DNA from: a virus | Virus record (IMG/VR): IMGVR_UViG_3300033417_000013 | Location: 1-50,855 of that record | Direction: 5' to 3' (one strand) | Length of the DNA stretch: 50,855 nt | In this document: piece after piece, positions 24,366-50,855 of the stretch | Numbering within the stretch: position 1 is the stretch's first letter | How the letters are laid out: every line of letters starts with the position of its first letter | Made by a program: the position numbers and the translations under genes | Notes under the pieces: generated by a model | What the model was told of the DNA's origin: nothing | What the model saw: the letters and a program-made list of their open reading frames with translations, nothing else | The model's database searches: none

Positions 24366-24565
24366 GGCGCGAATGAGGCGGTGGGGCGGGGCGGGTGAGG
24401 GGGATGCTGCAAAAATTCCTGCCCCGTATCAGGCATACCCCAAAATGCGCCCAAATACCGCCCGTAGCGCGTTGAATGGAAGCACCATGCCGGATACCAC
24501 GTTGGGGCATATAAACGCACCGTGACGGGGATTTTCGATATTTATAAAAGTGTACATGAAAATAC

Positions 24566-24594
24566 TTGACAGTAACGCTAGAGTGTGGTTTAAT
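24566..24594 (+). promoter_or_regulatory. Promoter TTGACA-17-TTTAAT with flanking CGCTAGAGT direct repeats
   Basis: -35 at 24566-24571, -10 at 24589-24594. CGCTAGAGT at 24576-24584 and 24603-24611. Confidence 0.55.
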
Positions 24595-24626
24595 AGGTGT
24601 ATCGCTAGAGTTACTAAGGATACAAA

Positions 24627-25529
24627 ATGGCTACTCAAACACAAGGCATTCAACTTGCAATCATCAGCGACGCGCCAGATGGTTATGGCATTGACCGACT
24701 AATCGACAAACGTCTGATACCGTTCAAGGCCGCTGCCAGCTACGCGGTGAAAGTGGTCACTGACCCCGCTAACTATAAGTTCACCGGACACGGCAAGCCA
24801 ATGTGGAAGCACAGTATTGAGATTATAGATGCCTCGCACTATCAAGTTGCCAAGATGCAATTATTTGGTGAAACGCAGTGGGACACGGTTATTGAACATA
24901 CCAGTATCTACCCCGCAGTGCAGTATGTCCTGGCATCCATTCGCAATGCGGTATCTGAAGTGACTGCGCTTGCCAATCAGGAGATGGCACCCACTGAGAT
25001 TGAAAATGAACTTGGCTTAAATCCCGGTGTTGTGCGGAAATACATTCATGACCACCGCGAAAAACTTGAGGCAGACCGCATCATCCGACATGCGGATAAA
25101 CGCACGGTTCTTATGCGGCGCGGCTTCGTATTGGCACGGTGGGGCAGACAGGGCGAAAAGCGGGTTGAGGATGTGCCGGAATTTACCCGCCTTATGAGCA
25201 ACCTAAGTGAGATGAAACCGCATGTTTGGGAGCAATTGGAGGCTTTAGACTTTGGTGAAGAACCTCGAACCAAAACCGCATTCGCAGATTACTACCGCAC
25301 AAAATCAATTCGCCTTGATGCTTTTGGCGCTGCAATCGAGAAGGTTGTGCCACGCTCTGAAAAAGAGGCTGCGTACTATCGGGTTGAAACATGGAATATT
25401 GACAGTCCGGTTCGTGAACACGATCTGACCATCCATAAGGTTAAAGATCGTATTGCCGCAGATTACGACGTTCGCATGTATCTACTAGGTCGCAAACTCA
25501 AGGCCCTGGTCTCCTACGGGGTTCGCTGA
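24627..25529 (+). CDS. Hypothetical protein with central HTH-like segment (300 aa)
   Basis: First gene after the promoter. MAPTEIENELGLNPGVVRKYI. Confidence 0.65.
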   Translation: MATQTQGIQLAIISDAPDGYGIDRLIDKRLIPFKAAASYAVKVVTDPANYKFTGHGKPMWKHSIEIIDASHYQVAKMQLFGETQWDTVIEHTSIYPAVQYVLASIRNAVSEVTALANQEMAPTEIENELGLNPGVVRKYIHDHREKLEADRIIRHADKRTVLMRRGFVLARWGRQGEKRVEDVPEFTRLMSNLSEMKPHVWEQLEALDFGEEPRTKTAFADYYRTKSIRLDAFGAAIEKVVPRSEKEAAYYRVETWNIDSPVREHDLTIHKVKDRIAADYDVRMYLLGRKLKALVSYGVR

Positions 25530-25873
25530 TGTATGGAGTGATCGGTATCCGTCTGATTATCGGTTCCAGTCGCTGGCCGAGTCGCCCTAAGCCATGGGTT
25601 GCTCGGCTTACCAGACTAGATGATCATTACGGGTTTGCTAGAGAGTTCATCCGAGCCACCTACGATTACACCCACGCCAGCAAAGCTAACGGCAAAGGTA
25701 CACGTATGTATTTCGCCATGCCGCCGGGGGTGTATGAGGGTTGTTGGCCTATCTCGTGGAAGCATGAACACAGAGGTTTTTGGCAAGTGGATGAACAAGG
25801 CAATATCTACGACATCACCAGAGAGGAGGTAATCGAATGCCTGAAAAAGTCGGTCTCGGAATCAGTGTCCTAG
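25529..25873 (+). CDS. Hypothetical protein (114 aa)
   Basis: TGATG coupling. Confidence 0.6.
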   Translation: MYGVIGIRLIIGSSRWPSRPKPWVARLTRLDDHYGFAREFIRATYDYTHASKANGKGTRMYFAMPPGVYEGCWPISWKHEHRGFWQVDEQGNIYDITREEVIECLKKSVSESVS

Positions 25874-27072
25874 AAGCCGCACAGCAGCGCATTACGGAGA
25901 TATTCGACATCTTCCCGCGCATTCTGGTGTCTTTCAGCGGCGGCAAAGACAGCACGGTCATGTTACATCTGGTCATGCAGGAAGCGCAGCGGCGCAACCG
26001 TAAGGCGGGTGTGCTGTGCGTTGACCTCGAAGGACAGTACAAGCTCACCATAGATCATATCCAGCGGTGTTACGACCTGTACGCTGACCACATTGAACCG
26101 TACTGGATATGTTTACCGATTGCCTTGCGTAATGCCGTGTCCAACTACGAGCCAAAATGGACATGCTGGGAACCGGGGCGCGAAAATGACTGGATACGCC
26201 AACCGCCGGACATGGCGATTACCGATCATGAGACACTTCCGTTTTATCGCTACTATCAGGGGCGAGCGATGGAGTTTGAGGAATTTGTACCGAAGTTTGG
26301 GGATTGGTACGCACAGGGCAAACTCACTGCCACGTTCGTGGGTATCCGCACGGGCGAAAGTCTTAACCGCTGGCGCACAATCGCGGGACACGGACAAAAG
26401 TTCGAGGGGCGCAATTGGACAAACCATGTCATGAAAAGCACCTGGAATGTTTACCCGATTTACGACTGGCACACGAATGACATTTGGACGTACCACGCCA
26501 AAACGAACCTGCCCTACAACCGACTGTATGACCGGATGCACCAGGCCGGGTTATCTGTTCACCAGATGCGAATCTGCCAACCCTATGGTGACGACCAGCG
26601 TAAGGGGTTGTGGCTGTTCCAGATTATCGAACCGGAGACATGGGCGCGGATTGTGGCACGGGTGAACGGCGCTAATCAGGGCGCGTTGTATGCCAACGAG
26701 TCCGGCAACATTCTAGGCCGTATCAAGATCGTCAAACCAGAAGGTCATACATGGGAATCGTTTGCTCACCTACTGCTGAACAGTATGCCGGAGAAAACCA
26801 GCGAACACTACAAGAATAAAATCGCCACATTCATCGCATGGTATCGTGACTTGGGGTATCCCGATGGTATCCCGGATAAGATGCCATCCGACCTCGAAGC
26901 GGCACGGCAAGCACCAAGCTGGCGGCGTATTTGCAAGACGCTCCTGCGTAATGACTACTGGTGCAAGGGATTGGGTTTCTCACAGCAGACAGGAACCGCA
27001 CACACACAATACAAGCAACTCATGGCGAAACGGAGGAACGAATGGGGTATCTTTCCGCTCTCAACCGACTGA
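25837..27072 (+). CDS. PAPS-reductase-like PP-loop protein with long C-terminal extension (IbrA/YbdN-like)
   Basis: PP-loop VSFSGGKDSTVM. 411 aa. GAGGAGG upstream. Paired with the ParB-like gene. Confidence 0.8.
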   Translation: MPEKVGLGISVLEAAQQRITEIFDIFPRILVSFSGGKDSTVMLHLVMQEAQRRNRKAGVLCVDLEGQYKLTIDHIQRCYDLYADHIEPYWICLPIALRNAVSNYEPKWTCWEPGRENDWIRQPPDMAITDHETLPFYRYYQGRAMEFEEFVPKFGDWYAQGKLTATFVGIRTGESLNRWRTIAGHGQKFEGRNWTNHVMKSTWNVYPIYDWHTNDIWTYHAKTNLPYNRLYDRMHQAGLSVHQMRICQPYGDDQRKGLWLFQIIEPETWARIVARVNGANQGALYANESGNILGRIKIVKPEGHTWESFAHLLLNSMPEKTSEHYKNKIATFIAWYRDLGYPDGIPDKMPSDLEAARQAPSWRRICKTLLRNDYWCKGLGFSQQTGTAHTQYKQLMAKRRNEWGIFPLSTD

Positions 27073-27671
27073 TAGACGAATTACAGCAACTTGATGACTG
27101 CGAACGCATTGAGGCGATTAATCAGGCAAAGCTGGCATTGCACGAAGTGTCGCCTATGCGTGATGAACCTGTAGACTGCGTACTGTGGGTGCTGGCGGAT
27201 ACCGTGCAAGCCAATGACTACAATCCAAATGTTGTAGCCCCGCCGGAAATGAAGTTATTGAAACACAGTATCGAGGCCGATGGTTTCACGCAGCCGATTG
27301 TCACATATCCAATTAACGGACACCGTGAGGTGATTGATGGTTTTCACCGCAATCGCGTTGGCAAAGAGGTCAAGGCGATCAAAAAACGGTTGCGCGGGTA
27401 TCTGCCGGTAACAACCATCCGGGCAGATCGTGAGGATCGTGAGAACCGGATTGCATCGACTATCCGCCACAATCGGGCACGGGGCAAACATACGGTGGAT
27501 AACATGTCTGAGATCGTGGTGGAACTATCCCGCCGTAACTGGACAGATGCGAAAATCGCGCGGGAACTTGGCATGGAATCCGATGAAGTTCTCAGGCTCA
27601 AACAGATCAGCGGCCTGGCTGAATTATTCGCAGACCGTGAATTTTCCCAAGCGTGGGAGATAGCACAATGA
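27042..27671 (+). CDS. ParB/Srx-like nuclease-domain protein (IbrB/YbdM-like)
   Basis: VIDGFHRNRVG and RHNRARGKH motifs. GGAGG 5 nt before ATG 27042. Overlaps the 3' end of the upstream gene. Confidence 0.75.
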   Translation: MGYLSALNRLIDELQQLDDCERIEAINQAKLALHEVSPMRDEPVDCVLWVLADTVQANDYNPNVVAPPEMKLLKHSIEADGFTQPIVTYPINGHREVIDGFHRNRVGKEVKAIKKRLRGYLPVTTIRADREDRENRIASTIRHNRARGKHTVDNMSEIVVELSRRNWTDAKIARELGMESDEVLRLKQISGLAELFADREFSQAWEIAQ

Positions 27672-27895
27672 CCAAAAAATACCGCAAACGCGACTCGCAG
27701 CACCCCAAAATTCTGCTGATCCTCACCAGTGAACAACTGGCGGCGCTGGATGCTGTGCTTGGAGACCAAGACCGCAGCGCCTTCATCCGAGACGCGCTCA
27801 AGGCGGCGTTTGACGCGATGGGTGAACACTGGCCCGATAACATGCCAACGAAGGGCCACGCGCTGAAAAGCAAATCTGAAGAAAACGTGAATTAG
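27668..27895 (+). CDS. Ribbon-helix-helix (CopG/Arc-like) protein
   Basis: ATGA overlap. LILTSEQLAALDAVLGDQDRSAFIRDALKAAF. Confidence 0.6.
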   Translation: MTKKYRKRDSQHPKILLILTSEQLAALDAVLGDQDRSAFIRDALKAAFDAMGEHWPDNMPTKGHALKSKSEENVN

Positions 27896-27898
27896 TGC

Positions 27899-27927
27899 TT
27901 GACACGTAAGCATATATATGCTATGAT
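27899..27927 (+). promoter_or_regulatory. Promoter TTGACA-17-TATGAT with palindrome GCATATATATGC in the spacer
   Basis: -35 at 27899-27904, -10 at 27922-27927. Confidence 0.65.
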
Positions 27928-28718: not shown

Positions 28719-28976
28719 GGACGCTACATCTGGAAACGCCGCAACGCCATGATCGCACGTGGCAAGCGCATTATAATGGCTCACTGGCGCAACTACACAG
28801 TGGACGGTGAACTGATTGATGACCGCCACCTCGCTCAGTGGTTCACCCGCAACATCGGCAGGTACGCCATGTGGCAGATGGGACGCAGTATCCAGCCGCA
28901 GAACGTGGATGGAATGCAGCGCAAGTTCTGGCAGGATGTGATCGCGGAATTGGAAGCGGAACACGAGATAGGGTAG
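28713..28976 (+). CDS. Hypothetical protein (87 aa)
   Basis: Same start context as the two preceding genes. Confidence 0.6.
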   Translation: MNGRYIWKRRNAMIARGKRIIMAHWRNYTVDGELIDDRHLAQWFTRNIGRYAMWQMGRSIQPQNVDGMQRKFWQDVIAELEAEHEIG

Positions 28977-28999
28977 GCCGCAAGGCCGGGAGAGACACG

Positions 29000-29323
29000 A
29001 TGTCACTACCTAAAGGTGCAAAATGTCCCGACTGTGGGAAGGCGCAATTTAGCGAGATTTCCACTGGCAGTTTAGTGCGCTGTATCTACTGCGGGAAGGC
29101 ACACCATATTGATTTATACTGGTGGCTATCGGATACCCAGCATGATGATTATATCTTTCGCTTACGAGAAGCGTTAAAGCGCAGCAAAGTCACGCAGGTA
29201 CAATTCGCCCGGATGGTGGGATGCTCGCCTTCGCATATCAACACCGTGTTTAACGGACGCAACCATTACATTTCAAAACGTATCTGGGAAGTTGCTCGGC
29301 GATATGTCAGCTATCGGAGCTAG
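29000..29323 (+). CDS. Zn-ribbon + XRE-type HTH protein (107 aa)
   Basis: KCPDCGKA...RCIYCGKA followed by VTQVQFARMVGCSPSHINTVFNG. Confidence 0.65.
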   Translation: MSLPKGAKCPDCGKAQFSEISTGSLVRCIYCGKAHHIDLYWWLSDTQHDDYIFRLREALKRSKVTQVQFARMVGCSPSHINTVFNGRNHYISKRIWEVARRYVSYRS

Positions 29324-48371: not shown

Positions 48372-49003
48372 CAGTCCCACCCCCACCGTGTGCTTAAGCG
48401 TTCCATCGCTTGCTGACGCTGCTGTGGCGTAAGCTGGCTCATCATGCCTGTATCGCGTTTGTAGTGCATCAACGTCACCTGTGGCACATACACGCCCACA
48501 CAGCCCGCCGCTTCCAGTTGCAGCACCATATCCCAATCGTTGTACGGGAAGTCGTCATAACGCAGCTTATGGCCTGTATGCCACAGGAAGCCGTAGCGTG
48601 TGCCAAACTGTCCGACATTCAGCTTCGGATGCCATGCGCCGGGCTTGTGCGTTTCGTCTTGCAGCGGATAAGCCGTGTCGCCATAGGCGTACTGCTTGCG
48701 GGTGCGAACCGCCTCCCGCAGGGCATCAATTGCGCCCGGTGCATATTCGTCGTCCTGATCGCAGAAGATCACCCAACCGGTTTTGATGACATTCAAGCCA
48801 GCGTTACGGGCCGCAGATACGCCCTGATGTTCAATGCGTAGCAGGGTACAGCCTGAGACATCCAACGGGGTATCGCTGCCATCATCTACGACGATGACTG
48901 TCTTGATACATTCATTGGCCCAGGCGCTATCGACTGCCCGCTGCAAGTCGGCAGGGTTAGGATTGTACGCCGGGATGACGACGGTTACATCAGGTCGAGC
49001 CAT
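48371..49003 (-). CDS. Glycosyltransferase family 2-like
   Basis: VTVVIPAYNP...TVIVVDDGSD...FCDQDDEY. Confidence 0.85.
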   Translation of the reverse strand: MARPDVTVVIPAYNPNPADLQRAVDSAWANECIKTVIVVDDGSDTPLDVSGCTLLRIEHQGVSAARNAGLNVIKTGWVIFCDQDDEYAPGAIDALREAVRTRKQYAYGDTAYPLQDETHKPGAWHPKLNVGQFGTRYGFLWHTGHKLRYDDFPYNDWDMVLQLEAAGCVGVYVPQVTLMHYKRDTGMMSQLTPQQRQQAMERLSTRWGWD

Positions 49004-50073
49004 TGGTCAATCACCTTGTCCCACGAATAATTGTCGATGATTGCTTGCCGTGCATGTTGCCCACTGTACTGACAGGCTTCATGTGATCTCAGCAGATTCA
49101 AATAGCCAGCCATTTTTTTGTCATCATTTAAGGGTACGCTGGCTACCCCAACATGCTTCGCCAGCGCCTTATTCCCGCCGACATCCGTAATCACACACGG
49201 CAGCCCGTAGGCCATGCACTCCATGACCGCGTTACTCAGCCCTTCGGTGGTGCTGCAATTCACGGCAATGTCCCACCCCGCCAGCATGTCCAGATCATCC
49301 AAGCGCCCCGGCAGCCATACCACATCATGCAGGCCGCGTTCATCTACCATGCGCTGAATGGTGTCGCTGTAGTCACTGGGATAGCCCGCCATGATGAAGC
49401 GCAGGTTGGCGTAGTTCGGTGCAAGCCGTTCAGCCACCCGTACCAGCATCGGCTGATTCTTGATGCCATCGGGCCGGAAGTTCGCCAGCAAGCCAACAGC
49501 CACATGATGATCGTTAAGGCCCCAATAGCGCCGCGCCCGTTGGCGTAGTTCGGTTGTCAGGTCGGGGATATGTACCCCATTGGCGATGATACGCCCCTTG
49601 TGGATGTCGCCGCCGCAGTACAGCGGAATGCTATCGACCACCGCTTGCGAGTTGCCGACGATATGGGTTGCTGCCTGCATCCCAGCCATTTCGACATCTT
49701 CCGGCGTAGGGAACTGTTCTCGCACATGGCCCACACTTTCCAAGCGAATGACACGGGTATTCACGCCCGCACGTAAGGCCAGCATTGCGGTGGTTAGCCC
49801 CGTCGGATAACCGCAGCCAATCACCATATCCGGCGCTTCACCCTGGAACCACCCTTGTATCGCGTAGGGCCGGTTCATCGGGCCGAAGTTGACATGCGGC
49901 ACGTTGTTAGCCTCGATAAAGCTGCGCAGGTTGCCCGGCATGTCGCCGAAACCGTAGTAAATGCCCAGCTTGGCATCTATGCCGCGCTGCACCATCTGGT
50001 GGATCAGGTTGGCGGCTTGCTTCTCTGCCCCGCCGGGGTTGCCGGTGGCGATGACGTACAGGATTTTAGACAT
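48985..50073 (-). CDS. Glycosyltransferase, GT-B (GT4-like)
   Basis: MSKILYVIATGNPGGAEKQ N-terminus, C-terminal STTEGLSNAVMECMAYGLPCV. ATG 50073 overlaps the upstream stop by 8 nt. Confidence 0.85.
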   Translation of the reverse strand: MSKILYVIATGNPGGAEKQAANLIHQMVQRGIDAKLGIYYGFGDMPGNLRSFIEANNVPHVNFGPMNRPYAIQGWFQGEAPDMVIGCGYPTGLTTAMLALRAGVNTRVIRLESVGHVREQFPTPEDVEMAGMQAATHIVGNSQAVVDSIPLYCGGDIHKGRIIANGVHIPDLTTELRQRARRYWGLNDHHVAVGLLANFRPDGIKNQPMLVRVAERLAPNYANLRFIMAGYPSDYSDTIQRMVDERGLHDVVWLPGRLDDLDMLAGWDIAVNCSTTEGLSNAVMECMAYGLPCVITDVGGNKALAKHVGVASVPLNDDKKMAGYLNLLRSHEACQYSGQHARQAIIDNYSWDKVIDQWLDLM

Positions 50074-50855
50074 CGAGAATGTCCAGTATGTCCGCCGCCG
50101 TGCGCTTCCAGGTGAAGTTCGCCAGCAAATATTCACGGCCCTTCCAGGTATGTTCCAGCGCGGCCTCGTAGTTATTGACAATCCAGCGCAACTGTGCGTC
50201 CAGATGCGTCCGACTGATATTCACCCACAGACTGTCAGCGGCGTTAGCGTTCAACTTGCCGTCAAACTGTGACGGCCACATTTCCAGCACACTCACCGGG
50301 AAGCCCCACCGATCAACGTCCCACAGGCCCAGCCATTGCGTGGCAATCGTGGGAATACCCATCAGCACCGCCTCACGCGGGGGCAGGCCGAAGCCCTCGC
50401 CCCGGCTCGGAAACATGAACACCGCCGCCCGATTCATCAGCGCCTGATAATCCTCAGCGCTTTGTTCGCCGCGTACAATCGTCACCCCTGGCTGCGCACA
50501 GTTGGTCAGCCACATGGGGTTATCGCGGCACTTGATGACCAGTTCATAGCGGTCATCGTCGCCCAATACCCGATGCCAACTCATCATCGCATCCTGGGCA
50601 TTCTTGCGCATGTCACCCAGCGAGTAGGTCATGATGGTGCGCCTATCGCCATCCAGCGCCCGTTCGCGCCAGTCGATAGGCCGCGCATCCACCCCCAATG
50701 GCACGTAATGCACCGGCACTTCGACCCCGCTACCCTGGAAGATTTCGACCAGTGGCGGACAAGGAACCAACACGCGCTCATAGCACAGGTTCAGGCAATC
50801 GACCCATTCCGGCGCAACCTTCGTGCTTTCAGCCATCGTGTAGGCCCACAGTCGT
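50066..50855 (-). CDS. Glycosyltransferase (GT4-like), 3' part of the junction-spanning gene
   Basis: FPSRGEGFGLPPREAVLMGIPTIAT. The frame remains open beyond Met 50836 to the window end and on to 306. Confidence 0.8.
   Translation of the reverse strand, partial: RLWAYTMAESTKVAPEWVDCLNLCYERVLVPCPPLVEIFQGSGVEVPVHYVPLGVDARPIDWRERALDGDRRTIMTYSLGDMRKNAQDAMMSWHRVLGDDDRYELVIKCRDNPMWLTNCAQPGVTIVRGEQSAEDYQALMNRAAVFMFPSRGEGFGLPPREAVLMGIPTIATQWLGLWDVDRWGFPVSVLEMWPSQFDGKLNANAADSLWVNISRTHLDAQLRWIVNNYEAALEHTWKGREYLLANFTWKRTAADILDILDV
50729..50855. repeat. Terminal overlap, identical to 1..127
   Basis: Exact 127-nt duplicate of the window start. Confidence 0.95.

Follow-up and report, generated by a model that had tools for sequence, protein, structure and literature searches.

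An IbrA/IbrB-type cassette in an uncultured tailed phage: probable self-repression, an interchangeable third protein and a possible role in ATP-dependent DNA modification

IbrA and IbrB are paired proteins encoded by many phages and bacteria, and a version of the pair lies at the centre of a five-gene cassette in IMG/VR virus record IMGVR_UViG_3300033417_000013. The record (here "the window", meaning the whole stretch of 50,855 nucleotides that was analysed) is a metagenome-derived, siphovirus-like tailed-phage genome of about 50.9 kb from an uncultured phage. A preliminary description made from the sequence letters had listed five co-directional open reading frames (ORFs), and all five were recovered with the following coordinates:

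24627-25529, + strand: g1, 300 aa, probable autorepressor
25529-25873, + strand: g2, 114 aa, all-beta protein of an unannotated family
25837-27072, + strand: g3, IbrA/YbdN type, 411 aa, PP-loop ATP pyrophosphatase
27042-27671, + strand: g4, IbrB/YbdM type, 209 aa counted from an ATG, ParB/Srx plus helix-turn-helix (HTH)
27668-27895, + strand: g5, 75 aa counted from an ATG, ribbon-helix-helix (RHH), ATGA-coupled to IbrB

The genes are tightly packed. g1 and g2 share a TGATG overlap, g2 and g3 overlap by 37 nt, and g3 and g4 overlap by 31 nt, which puts the start of g4 inside the 3' end of g3 as first described. The ATGA coupling of g5 to g4 was also found, with an overlap and a ribosome-binding site. 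Shine-Dalgarno sequences precede g1 (AAGGA), g3 (GAGGAGG), g4 (GGAGG) and g5 (GGGAG). Given the overlapping junctions, these ribosome-binding sites, a 261-bp gap 5' of g1 and a new promoter 4 nt past g5, the five genes would form one transcription unit, and the second promoter sets the 3' boundary of the cassette. Neither the upstream gap nor the junction between g5 and the next promoter has a predicted RNA fold better than that of shuffled sequence, so no flanking terminator is claimed.

The type of module can be read from g3 and g4. The product of g3 is a 411-aa PAPS-reductase-like protein, as had been proposed, and its PP-loop SFSGGKDS sits at residues 32-39 (nt 25930-25953). It consists of a PAPS-reductase fold over residues 1-236 followed by DUF3440 from residue 238, and the hidden Markov model searches suggested at the outset recognise both parts: PAPS_reduct (PF01507) at 1.2e-16 and 61.7 bits (cut-off 22.5), and DUF3440 (PF11922) at 1.3e-35 and 123.2 bits (cut-off 25). 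g3 also matches phrog_2302 (1.3e-91), and its homologues fill more than 8,000 protein clusters, the best of them 90% identical. Over residues 4-406 it is 45% identical to a copy on an E. coli chromosome (locus L122), and it is 49% identical to a protein annotated IbrA in Escherichia phage PhiR5_2. The proposed assignment to IbrA/IbrB (YbdN/YbdM) thus stands on 45-49% identity, the two-domain architecture and the adjacent ParB/Srx partner, and the module is very probably of this type in both identity and architecture. The pair is carried by 138 sequenced phages. Structural comparison is less specific: a PDB search gave no close match for IbrA or IbrB, the closest solved structures to IbrA (FAD synthase and PAPS reductase) are remote matches at about 1e-4 that span two motifs, and matches to the TilS, TtcA and LarE models are weak.

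The partner, g4, also agrees with its first description as a 209-aa ParB/Srx protein with the motif DGFHRNRVG, which was found at residues 99-107 (DGFHRNR at nt 27336-27356); a C-terminal HTH follows at about nt 27519-27611. g4 matches phrog_2159 ("ParB-like") at 4e-74, and a second match of its ParB domain, at 5.5e-8, is to the phage DNA-methyltransferase family phrog_498. With Pfam ParB_N it reaches 21 bits, where the cut-off is 26.3. A profile of 21 diverse IbrB homologues finds ParB (4umk) and Noc, both at about 1e-4, and pairs its DGFHRxR with box II GERRxR of ParB/Noc. Over 157 IbrB homologues a box-I-like segment, DGFHR and a TIRHNRARGxH stretch are near-invariant, and the C-terminal HTH (GM..DE.LRL.Q..GL) is as conserved as these other features. 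The 209-aa protein ends about 20 residues past the HTH. No ParA is present in the cassette, and the NCBIfam model parB_part gives IbrB 15.8 bits against a cut-off of 58.5.

The association between the two genes holds well beyond the window. Among 160 loci anchored on IbrA alone (80 on viral contigs and 80 in genomes), 158 have IbrB within 1 kb on the same strand. IbrB is upstream of IbrA in 50 of those 158, meaning that either gene order occurs, and since the linkage survives such changes the assignment is sound. A census of third genes (same strand, within 2.5 kb) in the same 160 loci gave the following:

g2: 11/80 viral contigs, 10/80 genome loci
U61: 62/80 viral contigs, 5/80 genome loci
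SNF2-like helicase: 3/80 viral contigs, 23/80 genome loci
no third gene detected: 7/80 viral contigs, 43/80 genome loci

The IbrA/IbrB pair therefore usually works with a third, interchangeable component, drawn from at least three alternative families. This neighbourhood comparison did not bear out the five-gene conserved unit that the preliminary description had envisaged: the core is IbrA plus IbrB, g2 is interchangeable, g1 is lineage-specific and the RHH gene is local. The accessory proteins g1 and g2 are previously undescribed, while the IbrA/IbrB pair itself is already known.

In the loci that have it, g2 keeps a fixed place. It is directly upstream of IbrA, mostly overlapping the IbrA start, in 26 of 26 IbrA-anchored loci carrying g2. 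Searches anchored on g2 find IbrA next in every locus that extends past g2 (6/6 viral loci and the contigs of P0146 and P0170) and, on contigs of sufficient length, IbrB behind it. A metagenome scan with g2 alignment A2 gave only 2 loci, Chlorobiaceae phage CV-1-33 carries g2 as well, and a profile search of 1.8 billion representatives returned 1,429 relatives at E<=1e-3 and 776 at E<=1e-10. The 114-aa protein was described as an unknown, and indeed g2 of the window has no Pfam or PHROG match. Its AlphaFold2 (AF2) model (pLDDT 88) has 8 strands and a C-terminal helix; Foldseek against the PDB gave no meaningful match (best TM-score 0.38), and a BFVD search returned uncharacterised phage proteins alone. 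Some family members come closer to named families: 10 of 61 match PF07410 (Phage_Gp111) weakly (best 1.4e-4), below its 27.1-bit cut-off, and distant members match phrog_26647 (2.9e-12). g2 and the members of these two families are all small phage proteins of undescribed function, but the window protein itself matches neither. Beyond the g1 lineage, the genes that precede g2 were compared for conservation and proved to be singletons alone, and the start-site estimate there is unreliable.

The other third genes differ from g2. U61, the commonest in viral contigs (62/80) and usually in the order IbrB-U61-IbrA, is an unannotated family of 125-140 aa with the motif WEDY..GMY...NR.AW.GQAAC and no Pfam or PHROG match. 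It was seen in loci L014-L085 (for example L080:4568-4993), and its members include Mycobacteriophage Gaia gp106 (L189:5052-5450) and Pseudomonas phage Amjad_SA gp61 (L172:3128-3526). Family-against-family hhalign (probability 0.15%) rules out g2 as a relative of U61. SNF2-like/SF2 helicases, a recurring partner that has so far gone without remark, directly adjoin IbrA not just in the 23 genome loci but in several cultured phages; examples of these helicase genes are L144:3736-4992, S. thermophilus phage CHPC877 gp27 (L187:1276-2511) and a second Amjad_SA gene (L172:4709-6667). Mycobacteriophage Gaia has gp102, annotated exonuclease/helicase, as the upstream gene. Ten enterobacterial IbrA copies have an abutting upstream LysR-like gene, which we take to be ybdO.

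Regulation of the cassette is suggested by the DNA in front of g1, where three features overlap:

24566-24594, + strand: sigma-70-type promoter of g1 (-35 TTGACA at 24566-24571, 17-nt spacer, TGn, -10 TTTAAT at 24589-24594)
24572-24587, + strand: putative operator O1, GTAACGCTAGAGTGTG, a degenerate version of GTAACGCTAGAGTTAC occupying the spacer of the promoter
24599-24614, + strand: putative operator O2, GTATCGCTAGAGTTAC, 1 mismatch away from the consensus, covering the point where transcription is expected to start

The consensus promoter TTGACA-17-TTTAAT reported earlier is present; a promoter scan did not list it, and its -10 is without the canonical A at position 2. The repeat CGCTAGAGT was reported with it and does occur exactly twice in the 50.9-kb window, both times at the g1 promoter, but the copies are not simple direct repeats flanking the promoter. 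Each is the core of one of two 16-bp near-palindromes, GTAAC-N6-GTTAC, that overlap it. The 9-mer repeat by itself is weak evidence. The full element is a repeat of 13-16 nt with copies 27 nt apart, and a 16-mer search of the window gave 3 matches against 0.18 expected, all at the g1 promoter. When the upstream DNA of g1 homologues (41-70% protein identity) is aligned, one conserved design emerges: a TTGACA -35, the 16-bp near-palindrome GTAACGCTAGAGTTAC in the spacer and a TATAAT-like -10, usually with a second copy of GTAACGCTAGAGTTAC over the transcription start.

The motif also follows g1 from locus to locus. Allowing up to 2 mismatches, it was found directly upstream of g1 in 9 of 9 g1 loci in a search of 1.6 Mb of loci; of the 177 loci that lack g1, 1 has it, at an unrelated place. 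In locus L003, where g1 sits after IbrB, the promoter-operator block has moved along with g1. Two other candidate binders were rejected: IbrB, because the 177 motif-lacking loci have it too, and g5, because other g1 loci keep the operator without it. With IbrB present in motif-free loci and g5 absent from the other motif loci, g1 is the sole candidate binder, and since the operators overlap the core promoter, repression is implied. The association between gene and operator is observed; that g1 binds there and represses the cassette is probable, as judged from covariation.

The g1 protein fits such a role. The HTH-like centre ascribed to this 300-aa protein finds agreement in a weak HTH_68 match and in a winged HTH in the AlphaFold model (residues 120-165 approximately, nt 24984-25121; AF2 pLDDT 82), which lies between an N-terminal domain (motif FKAAASYA) and a C-terminal beta-rich domain. 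Short forms of about 185 aa consist of the N-domain and the HTH, and long forms of about 300 aa add the beta-rich C-domain. Foldseek of the g1 model against the PDB gave no meaningful match (TM-score <=0.38). The family is small, with 7 protein clusters in 5.8 billion (5.8e9) proteins, and g1 stands beside g2-IbrA-IbrB in every context recovered; it is best read as a regulator and not as part of the chemistry. Identity as a YejK-like nucleoid-associated protein (NAP) or as ChaC was discarded for want of Pfam support. P0152, a short g1 homologue (L167:4324-4878), is named "cation transport regulator ChaC" by JGI, and that name looks spurious because Pfam finds no ChaC in the homologous g1 of the window.

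At the other end of the cassette, the description of g5 as an RHH protein was upheld in part: the strand-helix-helix pattern is there, but the RHH_1 match is weak (16.7 bits against a cut-off of 20.5). Homologues of g5 were found neither in 165 related loci nor in 50,697 phage records, and the gene is local to the window genome and not part of the conserved module. It is followed by one further feature:

27899-27927, + strand: next promoter, TTGACA-17-TATGAT with a TG extension, 4 nt past g5

This promoter is stronger than that of g1 and has the same operator-in-spacer design, its spacer holding a perfect 12-bp palindrome, GCATATATATGC (27910-27921). Candidate binders of the palindrome are the g5 RHH protein and a Zn-ribbon/HTH ORF at 28838-29323; g5 would then be a local add-on regulator that may act on the promoter immediately downstream.

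What could a module of this composition do? PAPS-reductase-type PP-loop enzymes spend ATP on adenylating an oxyanion or carbonyl, and the AMP is then displaced by a nucleophile; within the clade, CysD acts on sulfate and FAD synthase on the phosphate of flavin mononucleotide (FMN). For DndC, adenylation of a DNA target is a proposal and not a demonstrated step. The best explanation that we can offer for the cassette, with a probability of roughly 45%, is a repressed three-protein ATP-dependent DNA-modifying machine in which IbrA is the catalyst, IbrB a loader or activator and g2 an adaptor. The winged-HTH protein g1 would bind the two GTAAC-N6-GTTAC operators over the spacer and the transcription start, giving negative autoregulation, and g2, IbrA and IbrB would be the translationally coupled working parts. 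IbrA would split ATP to AMP and pyrophosphate, its substrate becoming adenylated at an oxyanion or carbonyl. IbrB, which has the ParB/Srx fold, probably binds a nucleotide and carries a C-terminal HTH, would be the DNA-binding part that lets IbrA reach double-stranded DNA (dsDNA), as DpdB does for DpdA and phage ParB proteins for T-dioxygenases. g2, which stands where other loci have U61 or an SNF2 helicase, could serve as an adaptor that chooses the target or delivers the incoming group. The net effect would be a post-replicative covalent change to DNA, most plausibly the phage's own, that might blunt host nucleases or mark the DNA for expression. As the added group, a canonical Dnd-type phosphorothioate is improbable.

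That DNA is the substrate of IbrA/IbrB we put slightly short of an even chance. It is favoured by the HTH of IbrB, the recurrent helicase neighbours, the phrog_498 match and the precedents for ParB-like partners, and in L001, the closest relative, a DNA methyltransferase that shares the early block also speaks for a DNA target. Of the precedents, DpdA needs the ParB-like partner DpdB (PMC12839542), and ParB176 enables the phage T-dioxygenase 5mYOX176 to act on dsDNA (PMC13229309). The anti-defence role raised in the preliminary description is still guesswork; such ParB-like activators of DNA-modifying enzymes offer a better-founded analogy. A hint about the chemistry comes from E. coli, where deletion of ybdO raised ybdN by log2 5.5 and ybdM by log2 2.5, and where the same RNA-seq has the whole Cys regulon (cysDNC, cysJI, cysAWU, tcyP, yeeE) up 4-7-fold (PMC9068703 Table 1). 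Derepression of ybdNM together with the rise of the Cys regulon may mean that YbdNM consumes sulfur; the link is drawn in this analysis and not by the authors of that study.

Several points weigh against DNA modification. The chemistry had been called undemonstrated from the start, and so it is: the literature mentions IbrA/IbrB at annotation level alone, a full-text literature search returned no report of enzymatic activity or structure for the pair, and no experiment showing a substrate was found. The one phenotype that we know of for IbrA/IbrB is that the pair activates the eib genes of prophages in E. coli, and annotation strings for the family read "co-activator of prophage gene expression". 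The K-12 strain of E. coli has ybdNM, and we know of no DNA modification attributed to that operon. It is repressed under laboratory conditions (PMC9068703). IbrA is without a conserved cysteine cluster to carry sulfur, IbrB is without the C-terminal dimerisation domain of clamp-forming ParBs, and it is from covariation alone that we infer operator binding by g1. Finally, the 4-bp palindromes AGCT, TATA, CTAG, GGCC and GATC occur in the window at 0.56-0.71 of Markov expectation. Such a deficit is the usual signature of restriction-site avoidance, which full protection by modification would make unnecessary.

The alternative that survives best, though unlikely, is that the pair is a transcriptional co-activator or counter-silencer without covalent DNA chemistry, with IbrB acting like VirB or KorB, both of them ParB-family regulators. 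IbrB would bind through its HTH, remodel nucleoprotein and turn on phage or host genes, with IbrA supplying or consuming a nucleotide cofactor. A ParB N-domain joined to an HTH suits this idea, as do the historical phenotype and the position of the cassette between replication genes and later transcription units. However, it leaves no role for a strictly conserved and intact 400-aa PP-loop adenylating enzyme, nor for the recurrent helicase, g2 and U61 partners. The missing dimerisation domain sets IbrB apart from clamp-type ParB regulators here too, and the window holds no repeated site specific to IbrB, its sole repeated operator tracking g1.

The substrate could also be something other than DNA, such as tRNA or another RNA, a free nucleotide or a small molecule, with IbrB as an Srx-like, ATP-using helper. 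Most PP-loop enzymes act on substrates of this kind (TilS, ThiI, MnmA, TtcA, QueC and FAD synthase). FAD synthase and PAPS reductase, which come closest to IbrA among solved structures, act on small molecules, there are the weak TilS, TtcA and LarE matches, the Srx namesake sulfiredoxin acts on a protein, and the rise of the Cys regulon with ybdNM derepression (PMC9068703) could reflect a small-molecule sulfur drain. Those matches, however, are far under the family cut-offs and span the PP-loop and one other motif, the HTH of IbrB and the recurrent SNF2/SF2 helicases would be hard to explain, and a tRNA scan of the window found no tRNA genes; we consider this reading distinctly improbable.

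Longer odds still attach to a superinfection-exclusion or defence effector, held off by g1, that marks or damages foreign DNA or poisons the cell, an idea compatible with DNA chemistry. The cassette is moron-like, with tight repression and variable flanks, chromosomal copies are many, and PAPS-reductase (+Arc +ParBc) is listed among putative effectors of YejK-like NAP defence operons (bioRxiv 10.64898/2026.04.06.716658). Against this, no PADLOC model was met beyond weak DndC and BrxP matches, and the cassette lies among early genes and also occurs in phages without detected lysogeny genes.

Canonical Dnd/Ssp/Brx-like DNA phosphorothioation is very improbable, and the analogy with DndC that the preliminary description drew is weaker than it implied. 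The appeal of the idea is that the PAPS-reductase-domain enzymes DndC, SspD and BrxP modify DNA (PMC12914056), that IbrA is a PP-loop enzyme with such a domain, and that its ParB-superfamily partner recalls DndB. But IbrA scores 33.1 bits on the DndC model TIGR03183 against a cut-off of 290.4, and 33.6 bits over about 60 residues on the PADLOC DndC model. It has neither the iron-sulfur triad nor the cysteine dyad; over 165 IbrA homologues the cysteines are scattered and none is invariant (C376 95%, C247 80%, C366 80%). Every established phosphorothioation system needs a P-loop nucleoside triphosphatase (NTPase: DndD, SspC or BrxC) beside the PAPS-reductase-domain protein (PMC12914056). No NTPase of the DndD/SspC/BrxC type and no cysteine desulfurase was found among the five genes or the other window ORFs scanned, and no DndA or DndE partner stands beside IbrA.

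The remaining alternative, a CysH-type reductase of PAPS or adenosine phosphosulfate (APS) serving as an auxiliary metabolic gene (AMG) that boosts host sulfate assimilation, is scarcely credible: the Pfam PAPS_reduct match, the PHROG label "phosphoadenosine phosphosulfate reductase" (AMG category) and a viral AMG survey that counted the DUF3440 clade as CysH (bioRxiv 10.1101/2021.01.05.425418) speak for it, but IbrA scores 23-35 bits on CysH/APS-reductase models with cut-offs of 154-254 (TIGR02057 34.8 against 254; NF002537 35 against 154; TIGR02055 22.8 against 235), has no ECGLH tail and no CC...CxxC motif (the catalytic Cys motifs), keeps an intact ATP-type PP-loop where the aligned segment of E. 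coli CysH reads SSSFGIQA, and has an obligatory ParB/HTH partner that would make no sense for sulfite production. By sequence, then, IbrA/IbrB is without the hallmarks both of phosphorothioation and of sulfate reduction.

Comparison with known systems shows what is shared and what is particular to the window. IbrA/IbrB of E. coli ECOR-9 and YbdN/YbdM of K-12 have the same PAPS_reduct plus DUF3440 IbrA, at 45-49% identity, and the same adjacent ParB/Srx plus HTH partner in overlapping frames. Both arrangements have a dedicated repressor, YbdO/CitR for ybdNM in E. coli (PMC9068703) and, presumably, g1 here. The enterobacterial operons have a LysR regulator, no third small protein and a place in a chromosomal island, whereas the window cassette has a winged-HTH autorepressor (putatively) with palindromic operators, a coupled g2, a trailing RHH gene and a place in a phage early region. 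DndC/DndB, SspD and BrxP share the PAPS-reductase-fold PP-loop ATP pyrophosphatase, and Dnd also has a ParB-superfamily protein, but DndC is without the DUF3440 extension. DpdB/DpdA and ParB176/5mYOX176 resemble IbrB and its partner in having a small ParB/Srx-fold protein beside an enzyme, in occurring in phages and in variable gene order. The enzymes differ: DpdA is a transglycosylase (7-deazaguanine in DNA) and 5mYOX an Fe/2-oxoglutarate dioxygenase, whereas IbrA would be a PP-loop adenylating enzyme. IbrB also has an HTH, while the 5mYOX ParBs are without an obvious DNA-binding domain (PMC13229309). With CysH and the viral "cysH" AMGs, IbrA has the PF01507 fold in common; it is unlike them in its lack of catalytic Cys motifs, its intact ATP PP-loop, its DUF3440 and its ParB-like partner.

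In the window the cassette is 3' of the replication genes, close to the end of a plus-strand early block that encodes an Erf-type annealing protein, an O-like initiator and a DnaC-like loader. The minus strand carries the genes for the large terminase, portal, head-morphogenesis protein, major head protein and tape-measure protein. The flanking genes of the cassette vary in every relative, and a nucleotide search of the cassette region against 50,697 phage records gave no match. The cassette is best explained as a self-contained accessory unit with its own promoter and its own repressor. The closest relative, L001 (IbrA 90% identical), has a replication module of the DnaB type where that of the window is of the O/DnaC type, which indicates that the IbrA/IbrB cassette moves between phage backbones. 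In L001 an N6/N4 DNA methyltransferase (L001:2605-3384) belongs to the same early block, 2.6 kb upstream. The 261-bp gap contains a G-rich tract, GGCGGTGGGGCGGGGCGGGTGAGGGGG, at 24375-24403, upstream of the g1 promoter; the predicted RNA fold of that region is no better than shuffled (z = -0.4), and an Rfam search of the whole window gave no match. Among the structural genes, a 398-aa ORF at 48985-50181 (- strand) has a weak match to a glycosyltransferase PHROG (phrog_2170, 4e-9) and could be a second modification or host-conversion function of the phage.

IbrA/IbrB is among the commonest phage and prophage enzyme pairs still without a known reaction, and the labels that it is routinely given are wrong ones: a sulfur-metabolism "cysH" AMG in some cases, a "partition protein" in others. 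Since the contig comes from an uncultured phage, the window adds one more instance and does not by itself solve the IbrA/IbrB problem. What the analysis adds is, first, that a third protein (g2, U61 or a helicase) belongs with the pair, which is relevant to the choice of proteins for co-expression and narrows the hypotheses, and second, that the lineage of the window has what is most likely a tightly self-repressed cassette with a defined operator. Cultured carriers in which the chemistry could be tested can also be named: PhiR5_2 (PV340546), CV-1-33 (MT192033, with g2-IbrA-IbrB), Gaia (gp102-106) and CHPC877. It is a speculative and on balance doubtful proposition that IbrA, IbrB and an adaptor (g2 or U61) form a fifth, mechanistically distinct ATP-dependent DNA-modification machine, a PP-loop enzyme that its ParB-like partner loads on dsDNA, widespread in phages and adding a group other than a Dnd-type phosphorothioate. 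If it were true, the machine would be anti-restriction armour or an epigenetic switch, with interchangeable adaptors setting the specificity for target or donor.

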